In this document: in pieces, positions 3,775 to 12,837 of the stretch
Numbering within the stretch: position 1 is the first letter of the stretch
How the letters are laid out: each line of letters begins with the position of its first letter
Source of the DNA: a virus
DNA: 13,320 nt
Virus genome (UHGV): UHGV-1610946
Reading direction: 5' to 3' (one strand)
Position numbers and translations under genes: made by a program
Notes under the pieces: generated by a model
Told to the model about the DNA's origin: nothing
The model's database searches: none
Seen by the model: only the letters and a program-made list of their open reading frames with translations

Positions 3775-3802
3775 AGGCTACCTTCGGGTGGCCTTTTTTA
3801 TT
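3775..3802 (+). terminator. Intrinsic-terminator-like hairpin (7-bp stem, cUUCGg tetraloop, T6 run)
   Basis: GGCTACC(3776-3782) TTCG GGTGGCC(3787-3793) pairs as a 7-bp stem including one G-U wobble, followed directly by TTTTTTATT. Lies 20 nt after the MuF-like stop. Confidence 0.6.
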
Positions 3803-3859
3803 GCTGCGATCCGGATGGTGAGCAGCGTAACTGTCGGAAGACTTAAACCAGGTACTAAT

Positions 3860-4624
3860 ATGAAACTGAAAACGGTCGAGATTAACGGAAAACAATACGC
3901 AGAAATTGATACTGCTGGCCTGCCAGTTTATGTGCACGACGATGGTAAAGAAATTGGCTTCGATGCACCGCTGGCGACAAAAAAAATTACAGAGCTTAAT
4001 AGCGAGGCAAAAAATCATCGCCTGGCTAAAGAAGCTGCAGAGGAAAAACTGGCTAAGTTTGCCGCTATCGAAGACCCGAAGAAGGCGATCGAGGCACTGG
4101 AAATGCTGTCAAAAATCGACCAGAAAAAGCTGCTCGATGCGGGACAGGTTGACCAGGTTAAGGCAGAAATTACGAAAAATTTTCAGCAGCAATTAGATGA
4201 AGAAAAGCAACGCTCTCAGATGCTGGAGAAGCAGCTTTACGATTCTATGATTGGCGGTAGTTTTGCGGGTTCAAAATATATTGCCGATAAAATTGCGATC
4301 CCGGCAGATTTATTACAATCACGCTTCGGGCAGGCATTCAAAGTGGAAGAAGGGAGGATCGTTGCTTATGACGCTTCCGGCAACAAAATTTATTCCCGCG
4401 CGAAGCCTGGCGAACTGGCGCAGTTTGATGAGGCGCTGGAGTTCCTTGTCGAAAATTACCCTCAGAAAGACTACATCCTGAAAGCCAGTGGCAACAATGG
4501 CGGCGGCTCCCGTCCGACACAGCATGATATTGGTCAGAAAACGATGAAACGCTCTGCTTTTGATGCACTGGATGTTGCAGGTAAGCAAAACGCATTGAAA
4601 GACGGTATCACAATCGTTGATTAA
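3860..4624 (+). CDS. Putative head scaffolding protein
   Basis: Lies between the MuF-like gene and the major capsid gene. The product is rich in charged residues, with heptad-like stretches (KEAAEEKLAKFAAIEDPKKAIEALEMLSKIDQKKL) typical of scaffold proteins. Start is uncertain: the listed ORF begins at 3788 inside the terminator hairpin, which is implausible; in-frame ATGs occur at 3815 and 3860, the latter with a weak AGG upstream. Confidence 0.5.
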   Translation: MKLKTVEINGKQYAEIDTAGLPVYVHDDGKEIGFDAPLATKKITELNSEAKNHRLAKEAAEEKLAKFAAIEDPKKAIEALEMLSKIDQKKLLDAGQVDQVKAEITKNFQQQLDEEKQRSQMLEKQLYDSMIGGSFAGSKYIADKIAIPADLLQSRFGQAFKVEEGRIVAYDASGNKIYSRAKPGELAQFDEALEFLVENYPQKDYILKASGNNGGGSRPTQHDIGQKTMKRSAFDALDVAGKQNALKDGITIVD

Positions 4625-4633
4625 CACATTTGT

Positions 4634-4653
4634 CAGCTTCCGGATGGGAGCTG
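4634..4653 (+). other. Stable hairpin in the scaffold-capsid intergenic region (8-bp stem, GGAT loop, no T-run)
   Basis: CAGCTTCC(4634-4641) GGAT GGGAGCTG(4646-4653) gives seven Watson-Crick pairs plus one G-U. Begins 10 nt after the scaffold stop. No U-tract follows, so it is not a canonical terminator. Confidence 0.35.
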
Positions 4654-4722
4654 GTGTCAGGGCTGGATAGCTCATTACTCCATCTATTCACAATTACGCA
4701 AATTTTTAAGGAATATTTAATT

Positions 4723-5862
4723 ATGGCTGGAAATACCCTGACCGGGTTGATCCCGACTATTTATACCGCCCTGGATGTTGTATCCCGTGAGCAGGTAGGT
4801 TTTATCCCTGCGGTAGCAAAAAACGCAAAAGCTGACGCCGCAGCAAAAGATCAGACGGTAACCGCGCCAGTTGCGCCTGAGGCGAAAACCGAAGATATCG
4901 TACCGGGGCCGTCAGCTCCGAATACCGGTGATCAAAATATTGGCACTGTTGATGTAAAAATTACTAAATCCAAAATGGCACCGGTTAAATGGAATGGTGA
5001 AGAACAACTGGCTCTTGGTCCTTCAGGGACTTACAACACCATTCTGGCTGATCAGTTCAAGCAGGCTTTTCGCGCCCTTGCAAACGAGGTTGAGGCTGAT
5101 CTTGGTGCGTTGTATTTCGGTGCTTCCCGCGCCGTGGGAACCGCAGGGACAACGCCGTTTGGTGTTAAAGATGATCTTTCTGATGCTGCTCTGGCTCGTC
5201 AGGTTCTGGAGGATAACGGCGCACCGACAACCGATCTGCAGATGGTGCTTGGCTCCACTGCCATTGCTAATTTGCGCGGAAAACAGTCTGTATTGTTTAA
5301 AGTGAATGAATCCGGCACTGAACAGCTACTGCGTGAGGGCGTGTTGGGGCGTCTGGAGGGATTCAATATTCACAGTTCGGCAGGTGTGAAACGAGCGCCA
5401 AAGGTTGCTGCAACTGGTTATCTCGTGAATGGAGAGAAAAAAGAAGGCGATGTTCTTATTTCCATTGATACTGGTTCGGGGAGTATTTCTGCAGGTCAGA
5501 TTGTTACGTTCGCTGGTGATCCGAATCAGTATGTTGTGGCAGCAGCGACCAGCAATCTGATTACTCTTGCAGCGCCCGGACTGCGTCAGGATCTGGCCGA
5601 TGATACTGCCATCACAGTTGTTGGGGCCTTTACTGCAAATATGGCGTTTGATCGCAACGCGTTTCTGCTGGCATCCCGTACTCCGGCAATGCCGGAAGGT
5701 GGCGATAATGCTGATGATGTAATGAATGTTACGGACCCGATTTCAGGGATTACGTTCCAGATTGCACTGTATCGTCAGTATCGCCAGGTGCGCTATGAAG
5801 TTGGACTGGCATGGGGTGTTTCATCAGTGAAGCCGGCACATGGTTGTCTGATTCTTGGTTAA
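4723..5862 (+). CDS. Major capsid protein (putative)
   Basis: 379 aa from ATG 4723, which has a good Shine-Dalgarno (AAGGA at 4708-4712, 10-nt spacer). The listed ORF starts at 4630 with no RBS. Position is immediately after the scaffold gene. Family assignment is from context only. Confidence 0.65.
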   Translation: MAGNTLTGLIPTIYTALDVVSREQVGFIPAVAKNAKADAAAKDQTVTAPVAPEAKTEDIVPGPSAPNTGDQNIGTVDVKITKSKMAPVKWNGEEQLALGPSGTYNTILADQFKQAFRALANEVEADLGALYFGASRAVGTAGTTPFGVKDDLSDAALARQVLEDNGAPTTDLQMVLGSTAIANLRGKQSVLFKVNESGTEQLLREGVLGRLEGFNIHSSAGVKRAPKVAATGYLVNGEKKEGDVLISIDTGSGSISAGQIVTFAGDPNQYVVAAATSNLITLAAPGLRQDLADDTAITVVGAFTANMAFDRNAFLLASRTPAMPEGGDNADDVMNVTDPISGITFQIALYRQYRQVRYEVGLAWGVSSVKPAHGCLILG

Positions 5863-5871
5863 ACATTCAAA

Positions 5872-5895
5872 CGGGGCTTCGGCCCCATTTTTAAT
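5872..5895 (+). terminator. Intrinsic-terminator-like hairpin (5-bp GC stem, cUUCGg tetraloop, T5 run)
   Basis: GGGGC(5873-5877) TTCG GCCCC(5882-5886) followed by ATTTTTAAT. Lies 10 nt after the capsid stop. Confidence 0.6.
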
Positions 5896-6863: not shown

Positions 6864-7244
6864 ATGGCAAAGGCATGGGATATAGAACCGTCAATATTTG
6901 CCGGGATGATTGAGGAAGATGTAGGGCTGAAGATTCGCTACATCGCTATGCAGATTCTTACTGCTATTGATATTGCTGCTCCGGTTGATACCGGACGTTT
7001 CAGAAATAACAACCTGGTGTCGTTACAGCATCCCGATTTTGGTATATCTGATAACGTGGATCCGAACGGTACGATTGCTGTTCAGCGTGGGATCGGGGTT
7101 ATTTCGAAAGCTGCAAATTACGGGGTTATTTATATCCAGAATAACCTTCCTTATGCAGAGGCTCTTGAAAACGGTCATTCACAACAAGCGCCAACTGGCG
7201 TGTATGCCAACGCTTTTTATGGTGTTTTACAGGCTTACAAATGA
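6864..7244 (+). CDS. Putative neck/tail-completion protein (HK97 gp10-like)
   Basis: 126-aa ORF with Shine-Dalgarno AAGGAGA upstream. Contains PVDTGRFRNN, which resembles the DTG-containing motif I recall for HK97 gp10-family proteins. Position fits. Confidence 0.45.
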   Translation: MAKAWDIEPSIFAGMIEEDVGLKIRYIAMQILTAIDIAAPVDTGRFRNNNLVSLQHPDFGISDNVDPNGTIAVQRGIGVISKAANYGVIYIQNNLPYAEALENGHSQQAPTGVYANAFYGVLQAYK

Positions 7245-7633
7245 AGTTTACTGAAATCAGAAATACGGTTATTTCCAGAATGACGGCACAGACGATTATT
7301 GATGGAAAAGACGTATTGTATCCGAACGGGCCAACGTTCGATCCTTCCGGTAAGTTAATCTGGGCGCGGTTAAGTAATATTCCCGGGCAGGCTGGGGTTA
7401 ATGAAATTGGCGCGGGGCCGGTTGTTTATCGCACGGGGATAATCATTATTCAGTTATTTGTCCCCGCAGGTTCTGGTTCAAAACTCATTACTGAGACAGC
7501 CGATAAATTGCGGGAACTGTTTGAGTTTCAGGATGACGATCGTCTCAGTTACCAGGCTGTTTCCTCAATAGCCGTCGGCGAAAAGAATGGCTGGTTCCAG
7601 CTTAATCTTCAAATTCCATATCGCGCGCTCTAG
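7241..7633 (+). CDS. Putative tail terminator / tail completion protein
   Basis: 130-aa ORF with ATGA start-stop overlap with the previous gene, lying immediately upstream of the major tail gene (the position of lambda gpU-type proteins). Confidence 0.4.
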   Translation: MKFTEIRNTVISRMTAQTIIDGKDVLYPNGPTFDPSGKLIWARLSNIPGQAGVNEIGAGPVVYRTGIIIIQLFVPAGSGSKLITETADKLRELFEFQDDDRLSYQAVSSIAVGEKNGWFQLNLQIPYRAL

Positions 7634-7659
7634 CGCAATTAATGACATAGGAGGCTTCT

Positions 7660-8622
7660 GTGAGTTCAGGTGCAAAGGTTATCTCGGCATTTATCCGGGA
7701 GACAGTTGCAGGCACTACGCCAGCAAGTGGTGACTGGAGTTTATTAAAACGCACAAGCTGGGGAGTAAAACCCACCCAGAATAAAGGCGAAAATAATGAG
7801 ATTGGTGGCTCCCGGATGGCTCAGGGGGCGACGCCTGGCACTGTGGATGTCGGCGGTGATGTTGGTACCAAATTTCGCTGGGGTCAACATGATGATTTTC
7901 TTGCATCCTGTTTCGGCGCGGAATGGTCAGGCGATTCTCTGACAATGGGGAATGAGCGAATAACATTTTCTCTGGCGACCTATGCGTCCGATGTCGGAAT
8001 TGCCTCTGTCGTCAGAGGAGCGCAGGTTGGCTCATGGAAAATGCAGATCCCTAACGACGGCGATATTACAGCGACCGTAACCTTTGCCGGGCTGGGCTGG
8101 GAAACAAAGGCCGATGATACGAATTTTATCAAAGGCAAACCTGTGGATAGTGCAGGAAAGTTACGCTATTCGTTTAAGGAGGTTTCAGCAGTAAGCCTGA
8201 ATGGTGTTGCCGGAGGTAACGGTTTTTGTATCGACAGTTTTGATATTCAGTTCGATAACAAACTCCAGACACAGCGTTGTATCGGGACTGGCTCGCCTTA
8301 TGCAGGAGCAAATATTCCGACTACTTTTACACCGTCCGGTACGGTGACGCTTTCATGGTCTAAAGCCGCGTGGGAAATCTGGAGTAAAACACTGACTGGA
8401 GAAACAGTTCCGTTCAGCTTCACGCTTTCGAATGGAGAGGGGGCATACACTTTCAGTTTCCCGAAGGTTCAGGTGTCAGGTGAATGGCCTGATGGGGGTA
8501 ATACTGACATTATCCAGGTTCAATTGAGCATTACCGCAGCAGATGAAGCACCTACGATAACCAGAAAAAAATGCTCCCCGACTGCCGTGATCGCAAAAGC
8601 CAGTGCTGATGCGATTAGTTGA
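7660..8622 (+). CDS. Major tail (tube) protein (putative)
   Basis: 320-aa ORF with GTG start and a strong Shine-Dalgarno (AGGAGG at 7648-7653, 6-nt spacer). Lies directly upstream of the chaperone frameshift pair and tape measure gene, the conserved major tail position. Product is rich in Gly/Ser/Thr. Confidence 0.65.
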   Translation: MSSGAKVISAFIRETVAGTTPASGDWSLLKRTSWGVKPTQNKGENNEIGGSRMAQGATPGTVDVGGDVGTKFRWGQHDDFLASCFGAEWSGDSLTMGNERITFSLATYASDVGIASVVRGAQVGSWKMQIPNDGDITATVTFAGLGWETKADDTNFIKGKPVDSAGKLRYSFKEVSAVSLNGVAGGNGFCIDSFDIQFDNKLQTQRCIGTGSPYAGANIPTTFTPSGTVTLSWSKAAWEIWSKTLTGETVPFSFTLSNGEGAYTFSFPKVQVSGEWPDGGNTDIIQVQLSITAADEAPTITRKKCSPTAVIAKASADAIS

Positions 8623-8634
8623 TTTTCCGTTATT

Positions 8635-8661
8635 CCCCCTGTGGTACTGCACTACAGGGGG
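8635..8661 (+). promoter_or_regulatory. Hairpin after the major tail gene whose 3' arm overlaps the likely RBS of the chaperone gene
   Basis: CCCCCTGT(8635-8642) and ACAGGGGG(8654-8661) are perfect reverse complements (8-bp stem, up to 11 bp with a wobble). No T-run follows. The GGGGG of the right arm is the only Shine-Dalgarno-like element for ATG 8671. Confidence 0.45.
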
Positions 8662-8670
8662 ACGCATTGA

Positions 8671-9132
8671 ATGAGGTTATGGATGTTTATTCTTAATCAG
8701 AAAATTATCATCGGTGGAGAACGCTGGTTTACGCCAATGAAGGACTTAAAACCTGTAGACGGGTTAAAACTGTTGGTGGCAAGCAGCGATAACGATCAGT
8801 ATCGCTCCCGTAATGCATTAATCCGTCGTCACATTGAGAAAATGGATGCCAGTTTGCACGTCGGAACGAAGGAGTTTGATATTTCAAAGGTTTCCGAGGT
8901 AGATTCTGTTGATGATTTACTCATTGATAATGCTGCTCGTTATCTGCTGAAAGACTGGAAAGGGGTTGGTGAACTGGTTAATGGTGCTGAGGTTGCACTG
9001 GAATATACGCCAGAACGAGGGATCGCGCTGCTTAAGCAGAATCCAGAGTTGTACTGGCAGATCCTTGCAGAAGCAGCCAGCATCGCCCAGGGTAAAGAGC
9101 AGCAGAAGCAGGATACGATAAAAAAGCCATAG
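8671..9132 (+). CDS. Tail assembly chaperone (lambda gpG-like)
   Basis: 153-aa acidic ORF between the major tail and tape measure genes. A slippery heptamer lies 4 nt before its stop, and an overlapping -1 frame stays open for about 105 further codons. Start could instead be an in-frame ATG at 8683 or 8737. Confidence 0.6.
   Translation: MRLWMFILNQKIIIGGERWFTPMKDLKPVDGLKLLVASSDNDQYRSRNALIRRHIEKMDASLHVGTKEFDISKVSEVDSVDDLLIDNAARYLLKDWKGVGELVNGAEVALEYTPERGIALLKQNPELYWQILAEAASIAQGKEQQKQDTIKKP
9120..9126 (+). promoter_or_regulatory. Programmed -1 ribosomal frameshift slippery site A_AAA_AAG
   Basis: In the chaperone frame the codons are ATA AAA AAG CCA TAG. The heptamer A AAA AAG (9120-9126) is a classic Lys-tRNA slippery sequence. 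The -1 frame has no stop from 9096 to 9440. Confidence 0.6.
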
Positions 9133-9440
9133 CCGCCCAGCGGTGGTTATCGGAGTTCGGGGGAGAAAGGGGGGAAAAGGCAAGATGGAAGCGAGAAAAA
9201 CTCAGGTTGCCACCGATACCGGAACCAGAAATAGACCCGGTGCTTAAGGAATTGTTGTACGCCTATTCGGTAATATCCCGTGCCCGACGTTATGCTGGAA
9301 TGACCGGGGTGCCTTTGCCTTTATCTCTGACAGAGATAAATGAATATTTAGCCACTCATCCGGTATTGATTGAGCGCGATGAGTTTGAAGCAGTGATCTT
9401 TGCACTGGATGACCAGTATTTTCAGGATCAGTGTGTGTAG
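9123..9440 (+). CDS. Frameshift extension of the tail assembly chaperone (lambda gpT-like part of a G-T fusion)
   Basis: Frame is open from 9096 to the stop at 9438-9440 and is entered by a -1 slip at 9120-9126. The supplied ORF 9207..9440 has no ATG (it begins at TTG) and no RBS, consistent with expression only as a fusion. Predicted fusion is about 255 aa. Confidence 0.55.
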   Translation, partial: KAIAAQRWLSEFGGERGEKARWKREKLRLPPIPEPEIDPVLKELLYAYSVISRARRYAGMTGVPLPLSLTEINEYLATHPVLIERDEFEAVIFALDDQYFQDQCV

Positions 9441-9560
9441 TTGTTAATTACGTACACTCTGTTACAGAGATGTGATGGTGTCTTTAATTAAATCGATGAT
9501 GCTCCTGGAGAAAAGCATTGCGTGGCCTCGTAATCGCTATATCTACTATTATGTCGCCTG

Positions 9561-9587
9561 AAACCCACTTCGGTGGGCTTTTTGTTG
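9561..9587 (+). terminator. Terminator-like hairpin (5-bp stem, cUUCGg tetraloop, T5 run) upstream of the tape measure gene
   Basis: CCCAC(9564-9568) TTCG GTGGG(9573-9577) followed by CTTTTTGTTG. It lies in a 163-bp non-coding gap between the chaperone extension and the tape measure start, 17 nt before that gene's GGAG Shine-Dalgarno. Confidence 0.5.
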
Positions 9588-9603
9588 TCTGGAGTTTTAA
9601 TAA

Positions 9604-12600
9604 ATGGCAGAGCAAACCTCGCGTCTCGCAATAATTATTGATAGCACTGGAGCAAAAAATAATGCTGACAATCTGACCTCCTCATTAGTCAAAATGACGC
9701 AGGCCGGGGAAACTGCTGCAAATAGCGCAGGGAAAGTGACTAAGGCAACAGAAGATGAGAAGAACGCGCTCGCAAAATTAAAAGCAGCTATTGATCCAGT
9801 TGGTGCCGCAATTGATACTGTCGGTCGACGCTATTCTGAATTAAAGAAATTTTTCGATAAAGGGCTTATTGATAAAGAAGAATATGAATTTCTTGTCCGT
9901 AAACTTAATGAAACCACAGAGGAATTGAGCGGGGTTGCGCAAGCGCAGAGAGAAGCCGAGAAGGCCGGAAAACTTGCTGCCGCCCAGCAGGAAGCGCAGG
10001 CTCAGGCCTTTCAAAGAATGCTGGACAAGATCGACCCTCTGGCTGCGGCGCTAAGAAATCTTGAACAACAGCAGGATGAACTTAATGCTGCGTTTGCATC
10101 CGGGAAAATAAATGGTTCTCAGTTTGAGAATTATAGCCGAAAAATACAGGAAACACGGCGAGAGCTTACCGGAGAGGCTCAGGCAGAGCGAGAAGCAGCA
10201 AAAGCGCATGATGAACAGGTTGCTGCTTTGCAACGTCTGATTGCTCAACTTGACCCTGTCGGAACTGCTTTTAATCGTCTGGTAGAACAACAGAAACAGC
10301 TCAATGAAGCAAAAGCTAAGGGGATGCTCTCTCCTGAAATGTATGAGGAACTTTCTGGAAAACTTCGTGCTATGCGGAGTGAGCTTGAGGTTACTCAATC
10401 TCAATTAAGCAAAACCGGAATGTCGGCAAAACAAACGGCTTTTGCTATGCGCATGTTGCCTGCACAAATGACGGATATTGTTGTTGGGTTGTCCACTGGT
10501 CAGTCGCCTTTTATGGTGTTAATGCAGCAGGGCGGCCAGCTAAAAGATATGTTCGGTGGGATTGGCCCGGCGATCAAAGGTGTTGGTTCTTATGTGCTGG
10601 GATTAATTAATCCTTTTACCCTGGCCGCAGCAGCCGTTGGCGTCTTAGGGCTGGCTTACTATAAAGGCTCTCAGGAGCAGGACGAATTTAATAAATCTCT
10701 TATTCTTACCGGAAATCAGTTGGGGACAACCAGCGGGCAATTGGCCGATATAGCTCAACGTGCCGGGAATGCGGCTGATTCGACAACTGGCGCTGCGGCG
10801 GCAGTATTAAACCAGCTTGTGCGTTCGGGAAAGGTAGCGAGCAGTTCGCTGGAGCAAGTGACGACAGCGATAGTAAAAACGAGCGAAGTAACAGGAATAT
10901 CAACCGAACAACTGGTTAATGACTTCAATGAAATTGCAAAGGATCCTGTCAGTGCCATATCAAAACTTAATGATCAGTACCATTTTCTGACAATTGCGAC
11001 TTATAACCAGATTAAGGCGCTACAGGATGAAGGGAACCAGCAGGAGGCCGCCCGCATTGCGACAGAAGCATACTCATCCTCAATGATCCAGCGCACCAAC
11101 CAGATTAAAGAAAATCTTGGTTATCTTGAGGCTGCATGGAAAGCTGTCGCAGACTCCGCAAAATGGGCATGGGATTCCATGCTGGACATTGGCCGTGAGG
11201 CCTCCCTTGATCAAAAAATCTCAGATGTTCTCCGTCAAATTGATGAAATAGAAAAAAATACCCGACCCGGAGTTTTCGGGTTAGGTGGCATTGGAGATGG
11301 CGGAGCTCAAAATAAAAGGCTGGCACGATTAAAGCAGCAATTGGGCGTACTTCAAGCAGAAAAAATTGCTCAGGACGTCCTAAATTCATCAATAAACGAT
11401 TACAACAAGCGACAACAGGAAGGAATTGAACTCAGACAGAGAGCAGATGCCTTTTCAAAACAATATCAGACCCGGGAGCAGCAGAGAGCTAGTGAACTTG
11501 CAAAACTGGAAAAGCTAAAGAGTCAGTATTCAAAGGAAGAATATAATAATTTTATCGCTCAAATAAATGAGCGTTATAAAGATCCAAAGCAACCAAAGGC
11601 GAAAGGTTATTCGGATGATGCTGCCCAACGAATGATTGATCATCTGAATCAACAGAATGCGTTACTAAGTTCACAAACTGAATTAACCGTTAAATTAAGT
11701 TCCTCTGAACAGGAACTGGTTAAGTGGCGTCAGCAGATTGCCGACCTGGAGTCACGACCGTCATCGAAATTAACCCAGGATCAGAAATCGCTTCTCTTAC
11801 ACCGGGAAGAAATAACCGCGTTGATGGAGAAAAATGTTGCGATTGAAAAAAATAACAGGCTAATCAAGGAATCCGCCGAAATAGCTGCATGGCGTGATTT
11901 ATTGCAGGCTTCGATTGATAATCGTCAACAGGGGTATGATATTCAGATTGCTGGTTATGGGGTTGGCGATAAAAATCAGCAACGCCAGCAGGAATTACTG
12001 CGGATTGAACGTGAATATAACAATCAGCGTCTGCAACTTGAACGTGACTATGCAGATAAATCCCGTGGGATGTCAAATCATGTTTTTCAGGAGAAAATGC
12101 AGGCTCTGAATGATGCTCTGGAACGAGAAAAAGAAATTGTCAGACAGAAAAACGAGCAGCTCGATATTCAGGCAGGAGACTGGGTTAGTGGTGCCTCCCA
12201 GGGATTCAATAACTGGCTGGATGACACTAAGGATATCAGTGAGCAGATAAAATCAACCACGACTCAGATGTTTGATGGAATGACCGATGCGCTGGGTGAT
12301 TTTGTCACGACAGGCAAGGCAAATTTTCGTTCTTTCGCTACTTCCGTGATTTCGGATCTTAGTCGAATAGCATTAAAGGCTTCAATTACTGGGATTTTCG
12401 ACAGCATTAGTAACAGTTCTTCGGGGGGGATTTTAGGAACTATCGGGAGTGCTATTAGTAAATTTATTCCGAATGCAAAGGGCGGTGTTTATGAGTCTCC
12501 GTCATTGAACACGTATTCGAACGGTATTTATGATTCCCCGCAATTTTTTGCTTTTGCAAAAGGGGCTGGTGTTTTTGGTGAGGCTGGTCCGGAAGCCATT

Positions 12601-12837
12601 ATGCCATTAACACGAACATCCGATGGTTCTCTTGGTGTCAGAGCTATTAATAGTAAAAGTGGTAATGGAGGCGGAGATATTACCTATGCCCCTGTATACC
12701 AAATCACTATTCAAAATGACGGCCAGAATGGAGAGATTGGCCCTCAGGCAATAAAAGCACTTATGGGGATGGTTGATCAGCGGGTGCAGGGCAATCTGTT
12801 AAATATGCGACGTGATGGGGGAATGTTAAGTGGCTAA
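9604..12837 (+). CDS. Tail tape measure protein (lambda gpH-like)
   Basis: 1077-aa ORF with Shine-Dalgarno GGAG 9 nt upstream, lying immediately downstream of the frameshifted chaperone pair and upstream of gpM/gpL homologues. It has a long coiled-coil-like N-terminal region with three internal repeats of roughly 70-80 aa, a hydrophobic Gly/Ala-rich segment ([35 protein letters not shown]), and a C-terminal [11 protein letters not shown] segment that resembles lambda-family tape measure C-termini as I recall them. Confidence 0.9.

Follow-up and report, generated by a model that had tools for sequence, protein, structure and literature searches.

What does a strong hairpin do in the gap between the tail tube gene and the tail assembly chaperone gene of a phage late operon, when it lacks the U-tract of a terminator? 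The question arose in a 13,320-nt stretch of viral DNA (hereafter the window, the whole of which was analysed; from UHGV virus genome UHGV-1610946). A preliminary description, made from the letters and a list of open reading frames, had reported an 8-bp inverted repeat directly after the tube gene and had proposed two roles for it: protection of the upstream tube message, and throttling of chaperone translation by a Shine-Dalgarno (SD) sequence held in its 3' arm. Here we placed the hairpin in its prophage, established where the chaperone gene begins, compared the gap with those of related tail modules and weighed the possible functions of the element.

The locus and its prophage

Several records of induced E. 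coli prophages (vB_EcoS-606R9, vB_EcoS-683R6 and others) contained region 7600-9700 of the window at 100% identity. In record ON470595 the element was situated in a prophage adjoining ttcA, in which an integrase, ydaQ, ralR, recT/recE, racC, kil, racR and cI/cII-like genes were followed by O/DnaC-like replication genes and a Q-like antiterminator, and then by tRNAs, lysis genes, trkG, a ParB-like gene, terminase, portal, and head and tail genes. This gene content is that of a full-length, Rac-type lambdoid E. coli prophage. The Q-like protein matched DUF1133 (E = 1e-107) and phrog_753 ('anti-termination protein Q-like'), with Phage_antitermQ just above the cut-off, and its gene lies upstream of the lysis and structural genes. 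Q antitermination switches on the late operons of lambdoid phages (PMC2629481). E. coli K-12 did not possess the hairpin element, its Rac remnant beginning only at window position 8781. Among 5426 complete E. coli genomes, the 901-nt stretch around the hairpin had matches in 1074, over at least 80% of its length in 713, and the hairpin element itself was present in 717, at a median of one and a maximum of two copies per genome. The hairpin region carried no annotation in any of these 717, leaving an unannotated element in about 700 complete E. coli genomes. A REP sequence or other dispersed extragenic palindrome was considered and rejected on copy number, with one copy in the window and a median of one per genome in the 717.

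All genes near the hairpin lie on the + strand. A tail terminator gene (7241-7633; PF13554) is followed by the tail tube (major tail) gene at 7660-8622, with its TGA stop at 8620-8622 (PF18906 Phage_tube_2, E = 1.4e-31; 'phage tail tube protein' in RefSeq), by a tail assembly chaperone gene of the YdaY family with its conserved start at ATG 8683 (8683-9132; phrog_313, E = 1e-46, and, from precomputed annotations, PF27119), and by the tape measure protein gene (9604-12837; PF06791, PF09718 and PF24622). The identities first given to the major tail and chaperone genes thus stand on PF18906 and phrog_313.

A stable hairpin after the tube gene

The inverted repeat was found exactly where the preliminary description had placed it, with CCCCCTGT at 8635-8642 and ACAGGGGG at 8654-8661 and one exact match within the window. 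It extends to TCCCCCTGTGGT (8634-8645) and ACTACAGGGGGA (8651-8662), which fold on the + strand as a 5' arm UCCCCCUGUGGU and a 3' arm ACUACAGGGGGA joined by 12 pairs, one of them G-U (G8643-U8653), around the 5-nt loop ACUGC (8646-8650), in which the CTGCA motif of relatives' loops is retained. The stem begins 11 nt after the tube stop, from which it is separated by a U/C-rich spacer, UUUUCCGUUAU (8623-8633). On its other side the tail ACGCAUUGAAUG has no U-tract: only two U occur among the 8 nt after the stem (CGCAUUGA, 8663-8670), and the preceding base, A8662, is paired with U8634.

The folding calculation that had been suggested as a check gave -21.4 kcal/mol for the hairpin alone, and no other simple hairpin of the window, on either strand, was as stable as 8634-8662 (runner-up -13.3). 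In its 86-nt context the z-score against dinucleotide shuffles was -3.09, and none of 200 shuffles was as stable. When the whole window was shuffled in the same manner, an equally stable hairpin appeared anywhere on either strand in 4 of 100 shuffles, so that a chance occurrence within the 60-nt gap between tube and chaperone genes, on the sense strand, is very unlikely. The minus-strand fold was weaker (-17.6 vs -21.4 kcal/mol). Searching the whole window with Rfam covariance models returned no match at E <= 1.

To terminate intrinsically, E. coli RNA polymerase needs a U-rich tract right after the stem. The hairpin has one part of a canonical intrinsic terminator, a GC-rich sense-strand stem-loop after a stop codon, but not the other, a U-rich tract of about four or more U in 8 nt. 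A terminator scan requiring at least 5 T in 8 did not list 8634-8662, in agreement with the original remark that the U-tract is missing. It does have the layout of an intercistronic stabiliser, being a stable stem-loop on the mRNA strand between a high-demand upstream gene and low-demand downstream genes.

The chaperone start and its ribosome-binding site

Three starts for the chaperone gene are in circulation: 8671 (the longest ORF), 8683 (RAST-type annotation) and 8773 (RefSeq/PGAP). The choice decides whether the hairpin contains the chaperone's SD, as had been proposed: the GGGGG at 8657-8661 in its 3' arm would then serve ATG 8671 and be sequestered by the stem, limiting chaperone translation. 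Several observations agree with this proposal. The G-run lies 9 nt before ATG 8671, which is in frame with the chaperone in the window, would pair with the anti-SD at -9.4 kcal/mol, and is fully paired by prediction (P(unpaired) = 0.000), as the preliminary description had it. The start itself does not agree. We surveyed 120 homologues, in 88 of which the N-terminal GERWF motif could be placed, and in 84 of these 88 the protein began at the Met equivalent to ATG 8683 (M[LFI]I[LIV]...GERWF, with the motif 11 residues in). The extension MRLW, from the upstream in-frame ATG at 8671-8673, was confined to near-identical E. coli entries in which the longest ORF had been called. In three sister-clade loci (L080, L082 and L083; chaperone 91-92% identical) the corresponding sequence reads ATG AGG TTA TAG ATG, or MRL*MFILEQK, placing an in-frame TAG directly before the real ATG, and the upstream ATG therefore cannot be the chaperone start in those loci.

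ATG 8683 has an SD of its own, GAGGU at 8673-8677, with a predicted anti-SD duplex of -6.3 kcal/mol. The last G of GAGG (8676) is separated from the ATG by 6 nt (8677-8682); by the SD calculation's own measure, the distance from duplex end to ATG is 4. It aligns with GGAG, AGAGG or AGGAG located 8-11 nt before the start in all relatives. This SD is outside the hairpin, 11 nt beyond the stem end at 8662, which is about where the 5' edge of a 30S footprint on ATG 8683 would fall. Neither the real SD nor the start is inside the stem, and an overlap of hairpin and SD is not conserved: relatives have a T-run between the two, so occlusion by the stem is not a feature of the family. The chaperone start is thus ATG 8683 with its own SD at 8673-8677, and the hairpin does not contain the chaperone's ribosome-binding site (RBS). 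That GGGGG is an SD through which the hairpin throttles the chaperone is very improbable, and this half of the earlier interpretation falls, leaving the suggestion that the hairpin may protect or delimit the tube message. A start at 8683 with an unstructured RBS had been named as the finding that would speak against SD occlusion. The start and its SD are as described there, but the RBS is partly paired, with a predicted P(unpaired) of ~0.3-0.4, because it folds weakly with sequence further downstream, without participation of the hairpin. Moderate occlusion of the chaperone SD was general, the median P(unpaired) being ~0.2-0.3 in all clades (111 distinct family sequences), and the 11 other RBSs of the window spanned 0.01-0.77, too wide a spread for comparison. 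The MS2 replicase operator and RNA thermometers, translational operator hairpins that sequester an SD, share with the element an SD-like, G-rich 3' arm in front of an in-frame ATG; the element differs from them in that its conserved start uses another SD than the G-run sequestered in the stem.

The SD of the tube gene, UAGGAGGC, was predicted to bind more strongly than GAGGU (-10.2 vs -6.3 kcal/mol), and this difference alone would give more tube protein than chaperone.

The RefSeq/PGAP entry 'protein YdaY' (119 aa; locus L002, 1974-2333) starts at window position 8773, following the truncated K-12 Rac model, and loses 30 N-terminal residues that are conserved in all homologues (window 8683-8772). 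The gene model is corrected accordingly: the chaperone, named YdaY from the truncated K-12 remnant, should be read from 8683 and not from 8671 or 8773.

Terminators in related tail modules

About 300 loci with YdaY-family chaperones were collected from genome and viral contig collections, yielding 96 distinct 80-nt upstream sequences and 84 distinct stop-to-start intergenic sequences. In nearly all of the 84, a GC-rich stem-loop closely followed the tube stop codon; the clearest exception was L016, with a 110-nt gap and only weak hairpins. The distance from stop to stem was 4-14 nt by automated measurement, in which the low values include flank pairing, and ~8-14 nt by eye, and a TTTCC motif recurred between tube stop and stem across the family. 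Outside the E. coli lineage the order was stem, nearly always T5-T7, then SD and ATG; this arrangement was found in sequences like Citrobacter, Raoultella, Siccibacter, Serratia, Pectobacterium and Tatumella loci, in relatives of Klebsiella-type chaperones and in metagenomic phages. As the stem is nearly always accompanied by T5-T7, the tube-chaperone element of the relatives is a canonical intrinsic terminator. Lineages in which the tube gene has been swapped (L272, L282 and L303) carried a different hairpin and T-run in the same place (CCCTCTTCGGAGGG, then T6).

Covariation was counted in an alignment of 38 non-E. coli sequences sharing an 11-bp stem. Six of the 11 pairs had changed on both sides, in 25 such cells, and 84% of cells were paired, compared with 36-47% when the partner was slid by 1-3 columns; none of 500 shuffles reached as high a covariation. 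From this combination of pairing and covariation, the alignment identifies the family terminator as a genuine, selected RNA structure. Terminator-type hairpins between tube and chaperone genes are thus conserved by position across many enterobacterial prophages. In the literature we found no paper describing the 8634 hairpin or a tube-chaperone terminator; what we found dealt in general terms with phage terminators, with read-through and with late operons driven by Q.

Loss of the U-tract in the E. coli lineage

MAFFT aligned the window hairpin between the same landmarks as the relatives' terminators, namely the stop codon, TTTCC, the CTGCA loop motif and the SD, and the window's CGCATTG, within the post-stem tail, fell on the relatives' T-run. 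That run changes stepwise, from TTTTTT in relatives to CGTTTTG in the sister clade and CGCATTG in the window: the E. coli lineage kept the hairpin and lost the U-tract. Judged by alignment, the window hairpin is the positional counterpart of the family terminator, from which it probably descended, as position and flanking similarity indicate. The two are not demonstrably one sequence family, and base-for-base homology cannot be claimed, because the stems of the window clade and of the relatives were 3 columns out of register in the MAFFT alignment and a covariance model of the relatives' terminators, run by cmsearch with filters off, gave no match at 8623-8685 at E <= 10. Cross-clade covariation taken from the single alignment was discarded for the same misregister, the apparent GC/CG swaps being artefacts of the 3-column offset, and pairs were counted per clade instead.

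The loss was not confined to E. coli. A subclade of the Klebsiella-type chaperone relatives (L271, L273, L274, L280 and L288) has no T-run (GGGCTTCATTATGGAG in its place) and an intact stem of -15 to -19.5 kcal/mol, and its loss is independent of that in the window lineage. The persistence of this stem suggests that such stems can remain without termination. With the U-tract lost at least twice and the stem kept, these loci provide a natural test case for separating termination from a role in RNA stability in Q-antiterminated late operons.

Variation of the hairpin within E. coli

If termination was dispensable, for instance because a Q-modified polymerase ignored the terminator, the window hairpin could be a neutral relic, decaying and without present function. 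Its variation bears on this in both directions. Across 11 alleles of the E. coli and sister clade, 95% of stem cells were still paired and the outer 8 bp were intact in nearly all. Four stem pairs varied, on one side only, by C-to-U opposite G or A-to-G opposite U. No compensatory double changes occurred in the stem among these 11 alleles, for which the shuffle control was without power. Changes counted from the alignment comprised 4 independent pairing-preserving and ~6 disruptive ones, including two deletions, and predicted energies ran from -21.6 (L075) and -21.4 (window) through -16.6 for the commonest allele, which is also the majority identity band among the 717 E. coli genomes with the element, down to -13.7 kcal/mol.

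Site variability was measured over 70 E. coli-clade loci. In the arms 38% of positions were variable (pi 0.074), with 60% in the loop and 38% in the tail, and pi across these varying parts was 0.074-0.081; third codon positions of the chaperone, at 32% and pi 0.057, varied at a similar or lower rate. Codon positions of the tube gene could not be used as a neutral benchmark, 73-85% of their columns being variable, probably as a result of swapped C-terminal domains. The stretch of ATG, SD and spacer was nearly invariant (pi 0.018), and none of the 11 positions of the 5' spacer (8623-8633) varied, next to a hairpin changing at about the synonymous rate. The spacer may be kept invariant by the context it gives to the stop codon, by a nuclease site or by pairing weakly with the SD; pairing of 4-5 bp between the pyrimidine-rich spacer and the SD was present in the minimum free energy folds of some relatives, not in that of the window.

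With arms that vary about as fast as chaperone third positions, these sequences fit a weakly selected stem and a slowly eroding one alike. A relic would account for the lost U-tract, for the variable arms, loop and tail beside a conserved spacer and RBS, for the missing compensatory changes, for the balance of preserving and disruptive changes and for the weakest alleles. It sits less well with the pairing that remains, with the window allele still being the strongest hairpin in 13 kb, and with the second, independent loss of a U-tract in which the hairpin was again retained; moreover, a stable hairpin in a highly transcribed mRNA acts on exonucleases whether selected or not. We consider a functionless relic less likely than the role preferred below, but a serious rival to it, given a stem that varies at about the synonymous rate.

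The same variants indicate the molecule and strand on which the element would work. A near-perfect inverted repeat could be a protein-binding palindrome at the DNA level or belong to the minus strand, where a mechanically called ORF (8476-8667) overlaps the hairpin. However, pairing at the G-U position and in the C-to-U and A-to-G variants holds in + strand RNA alone, and a DNA palindrome or the opposite strand would have C-A mismatches there. There is also no minus-strand T-run, the neighbouring genes are all on the + strand, and the element is single-copy and prophage-confined. A DNA-level or minus-strand function is hardly credible.

A possible role for a hairpin without a U-tract

Our preferred reading, to which we give roughly even chances, is that the terminator-derived hairpin acts as an RNA 3'-end barrier, or as a very weak attenuator, favouring tube over chaperone and tape measure mRNA. 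Without a U-tract, the hairpin would terminate E. coli RNA polymerase poorly, and the late transcript would be made by a Q-modified, terminator-resistant polymerase; as known from lambda Q, such polymerases read through terminators. Given these two properties, the remaining effect of the hairpin is most likely post-transcriptional. The stem lies slightly too far downstream to be covered by a ribosome that terminates at 8620-8622; it would fold on the mRNA and could block 3'-to-5' exonucleases that enter where an endonuclease has cut or where transcription has, rarely, terminated. The message would thereby last longer in its tube segment than in its chaperone and tape measure segment, possibly with an added pause or slight attenuation. 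Lower chaperone output would come mainly from its weaker SD, together with any difference between the mRNA segments. Terminator hairpins are described as raising the abundance of the transcript upstream (PMC11696848). Counting against the barrier role, most lineages keep their T-runs, which argues that selection usually acts on termination itself, an activity that the window copy would no longer have.

Alternatively, the hairpin might still work as a weak terminator, attenuator or pause site, so that fewer polymerases reach the chaperone, tape measure and distal tail genes. It occupies the position of the relatives' canonical terminators, its stem is GC-rich and stable, and by known footprints a stem 11 nt after the stop lies just past the terminating ribosome, where co-transcriptional folding is possible. 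Phages are also known to grade and balance operon expression with weak, inefficient or read-through terminators (PMC9163698). Yet the two U in CGCAUUGA fall short of the U-rich tract required, the terminator scan missed the element, and the operon is downstream of a Q-type antiterminator, making a working terminator unlikely here.

The barrier reading invokes no new mechanism, as hairpins after abundant structural genes are a familiar means of shaping phage operon expression. The element is ordinary: it belongs to the well-known class of terminator-type hairpins that separate cistrons downstream of an abundant structural gene, with a lost U-tract as its local twist. Among the intrinsic terminators within structural operons of phages it can be compared with T-phi, which follows the T7 major capsid gene (gene 10), and with the read-through terminators known from ONT-cappable-seq mapping; like them, it is a GC-rich sense-strand stem-loop at the passage from a highly expressed structural gene to lower-demand genes. 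Relatives of the window module carry a full terminator in the same place; the window copy differs from the T7 type in lacking the U-tract and in being transcribed by host polymerase under a Q-type antiterminator, not by a phage polymerase. Also similar are the mRNA-stabilising stem-loops between cistrons, among them the REP sequences of malE-malF and hairpins in the pap and puf operons. There, too, a stable hairpin without a termination function separates high-demand from low-demand genes of one operon, stabilisation being a prediction in the case of the window. The window hairpin is, in contrast to REP, single-copy, prophage-confined and unrelated in sequence.

The order of tube, frameshifted chaperone pair and tape measure is that of lambda V - G/GT - H. 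Lambda sets its G:GT ratio by frameshifting and its V:G ratio at the level of translation, and we know of no terminator-type hairpin described between V and G. In the window, by contrast, one hairpin precedes the chaperone pair, at 8634, and another follows it, at 9564, an arrangement that also marks this family. The second is terminator-like (9564-9583; CCCACTTCGGTGGG, then CTTTTT; its hairpin listed at 9564-9577), was found by the terminator scan just before the tape measure gene, and has an equivalent hairpin and T-run in a Citrobacter-like relative (L091, 3289-3305).

Loop complementarity in relatives

In many relatives (Citrobacter-, Serratia-, Pectobacterium- and Tatumella-like loci), the 8-nt terminator loop UCUGCAUG matched the reverse complement of CAUGCAGAGG exactly, and CAUGCAGAGG overlaps the chaperone SD. 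The complement CAUGCAGA lies beyond the T-run and takes in the opening bases of the SD (AGAGG or AGGAG); loop TCTGCATG and complement CATGCAGA occupy columns 29-36 and 55-62 of alignment A3 (e.g. L091 2459-2492, L014 and L017). Conservation was higher in the loop than in the covarying stem. In two Tatumella lineages (L017 and L019/L020) both sides had changed with pairing kept, two variants were wobble-preserving and three were disruptive. No such complementarity was present in the window lineage, where it was also looked for. These patterns hint that the family hairpin may be a conserved RNA device acting also on chaperone translation, with a pseudoknot that would mask part of the SD in read-through transcripts, a rather improbable reading to which an inverted repeat at the DNA level is an alternative. 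Were it correct, the window lineage would have lost both the U-tract and the loop-SD pairing, leaving only a stabilising stem, and the proposed contact between hairpin and RBS would be right for the family, by a different contact, and not for the window.

The slippery site and other features of the operon

As at the end of the lambda chaperone gene, a slippery heptamer A AAA AAG for -1 frameshifting was read from the sequence at 9120-9126, two codons before the chaperone stop TAG (9130-9132), and the -1 frame is open to 9440. A -1 frameshift is predicted to give a chaperone fusion of ~252 aa, as in lambda G/GT. The -1 frame extension (9126-9440), the T-like part of the fusion, matched phrog_1189 (E = 5.6e-36) and, weakly and below the curated cut-off, PF23812 Phage_TAC_18 (E = 6e-4). 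A 240-aa database protein (P0011) ends in -1-frame sequence. Several database versions of 185-186 aa (P0001, P0003 and P0008) end in +1-frame sequence (…DTIKSHSRPAVV…), which implies that the A-run of the slippery site varies in length or was misread in sequencing.

Terminator-like hairpins with T-runs were also seen in other large gaps of the operon, at 3775-3794 before the scaffold gene and at 5873-5886 after the major capsid gene. The first is overlapped by GTG 3788, the mechanically called start of gene 3788-4624, which is doubtful, as is TTG 4630 for gene 4630-5862. PHROG matches of these two genes cover them from residues 25 and 34 onward, so the scaffold-like gene and the major head gene probably both start further downstream.
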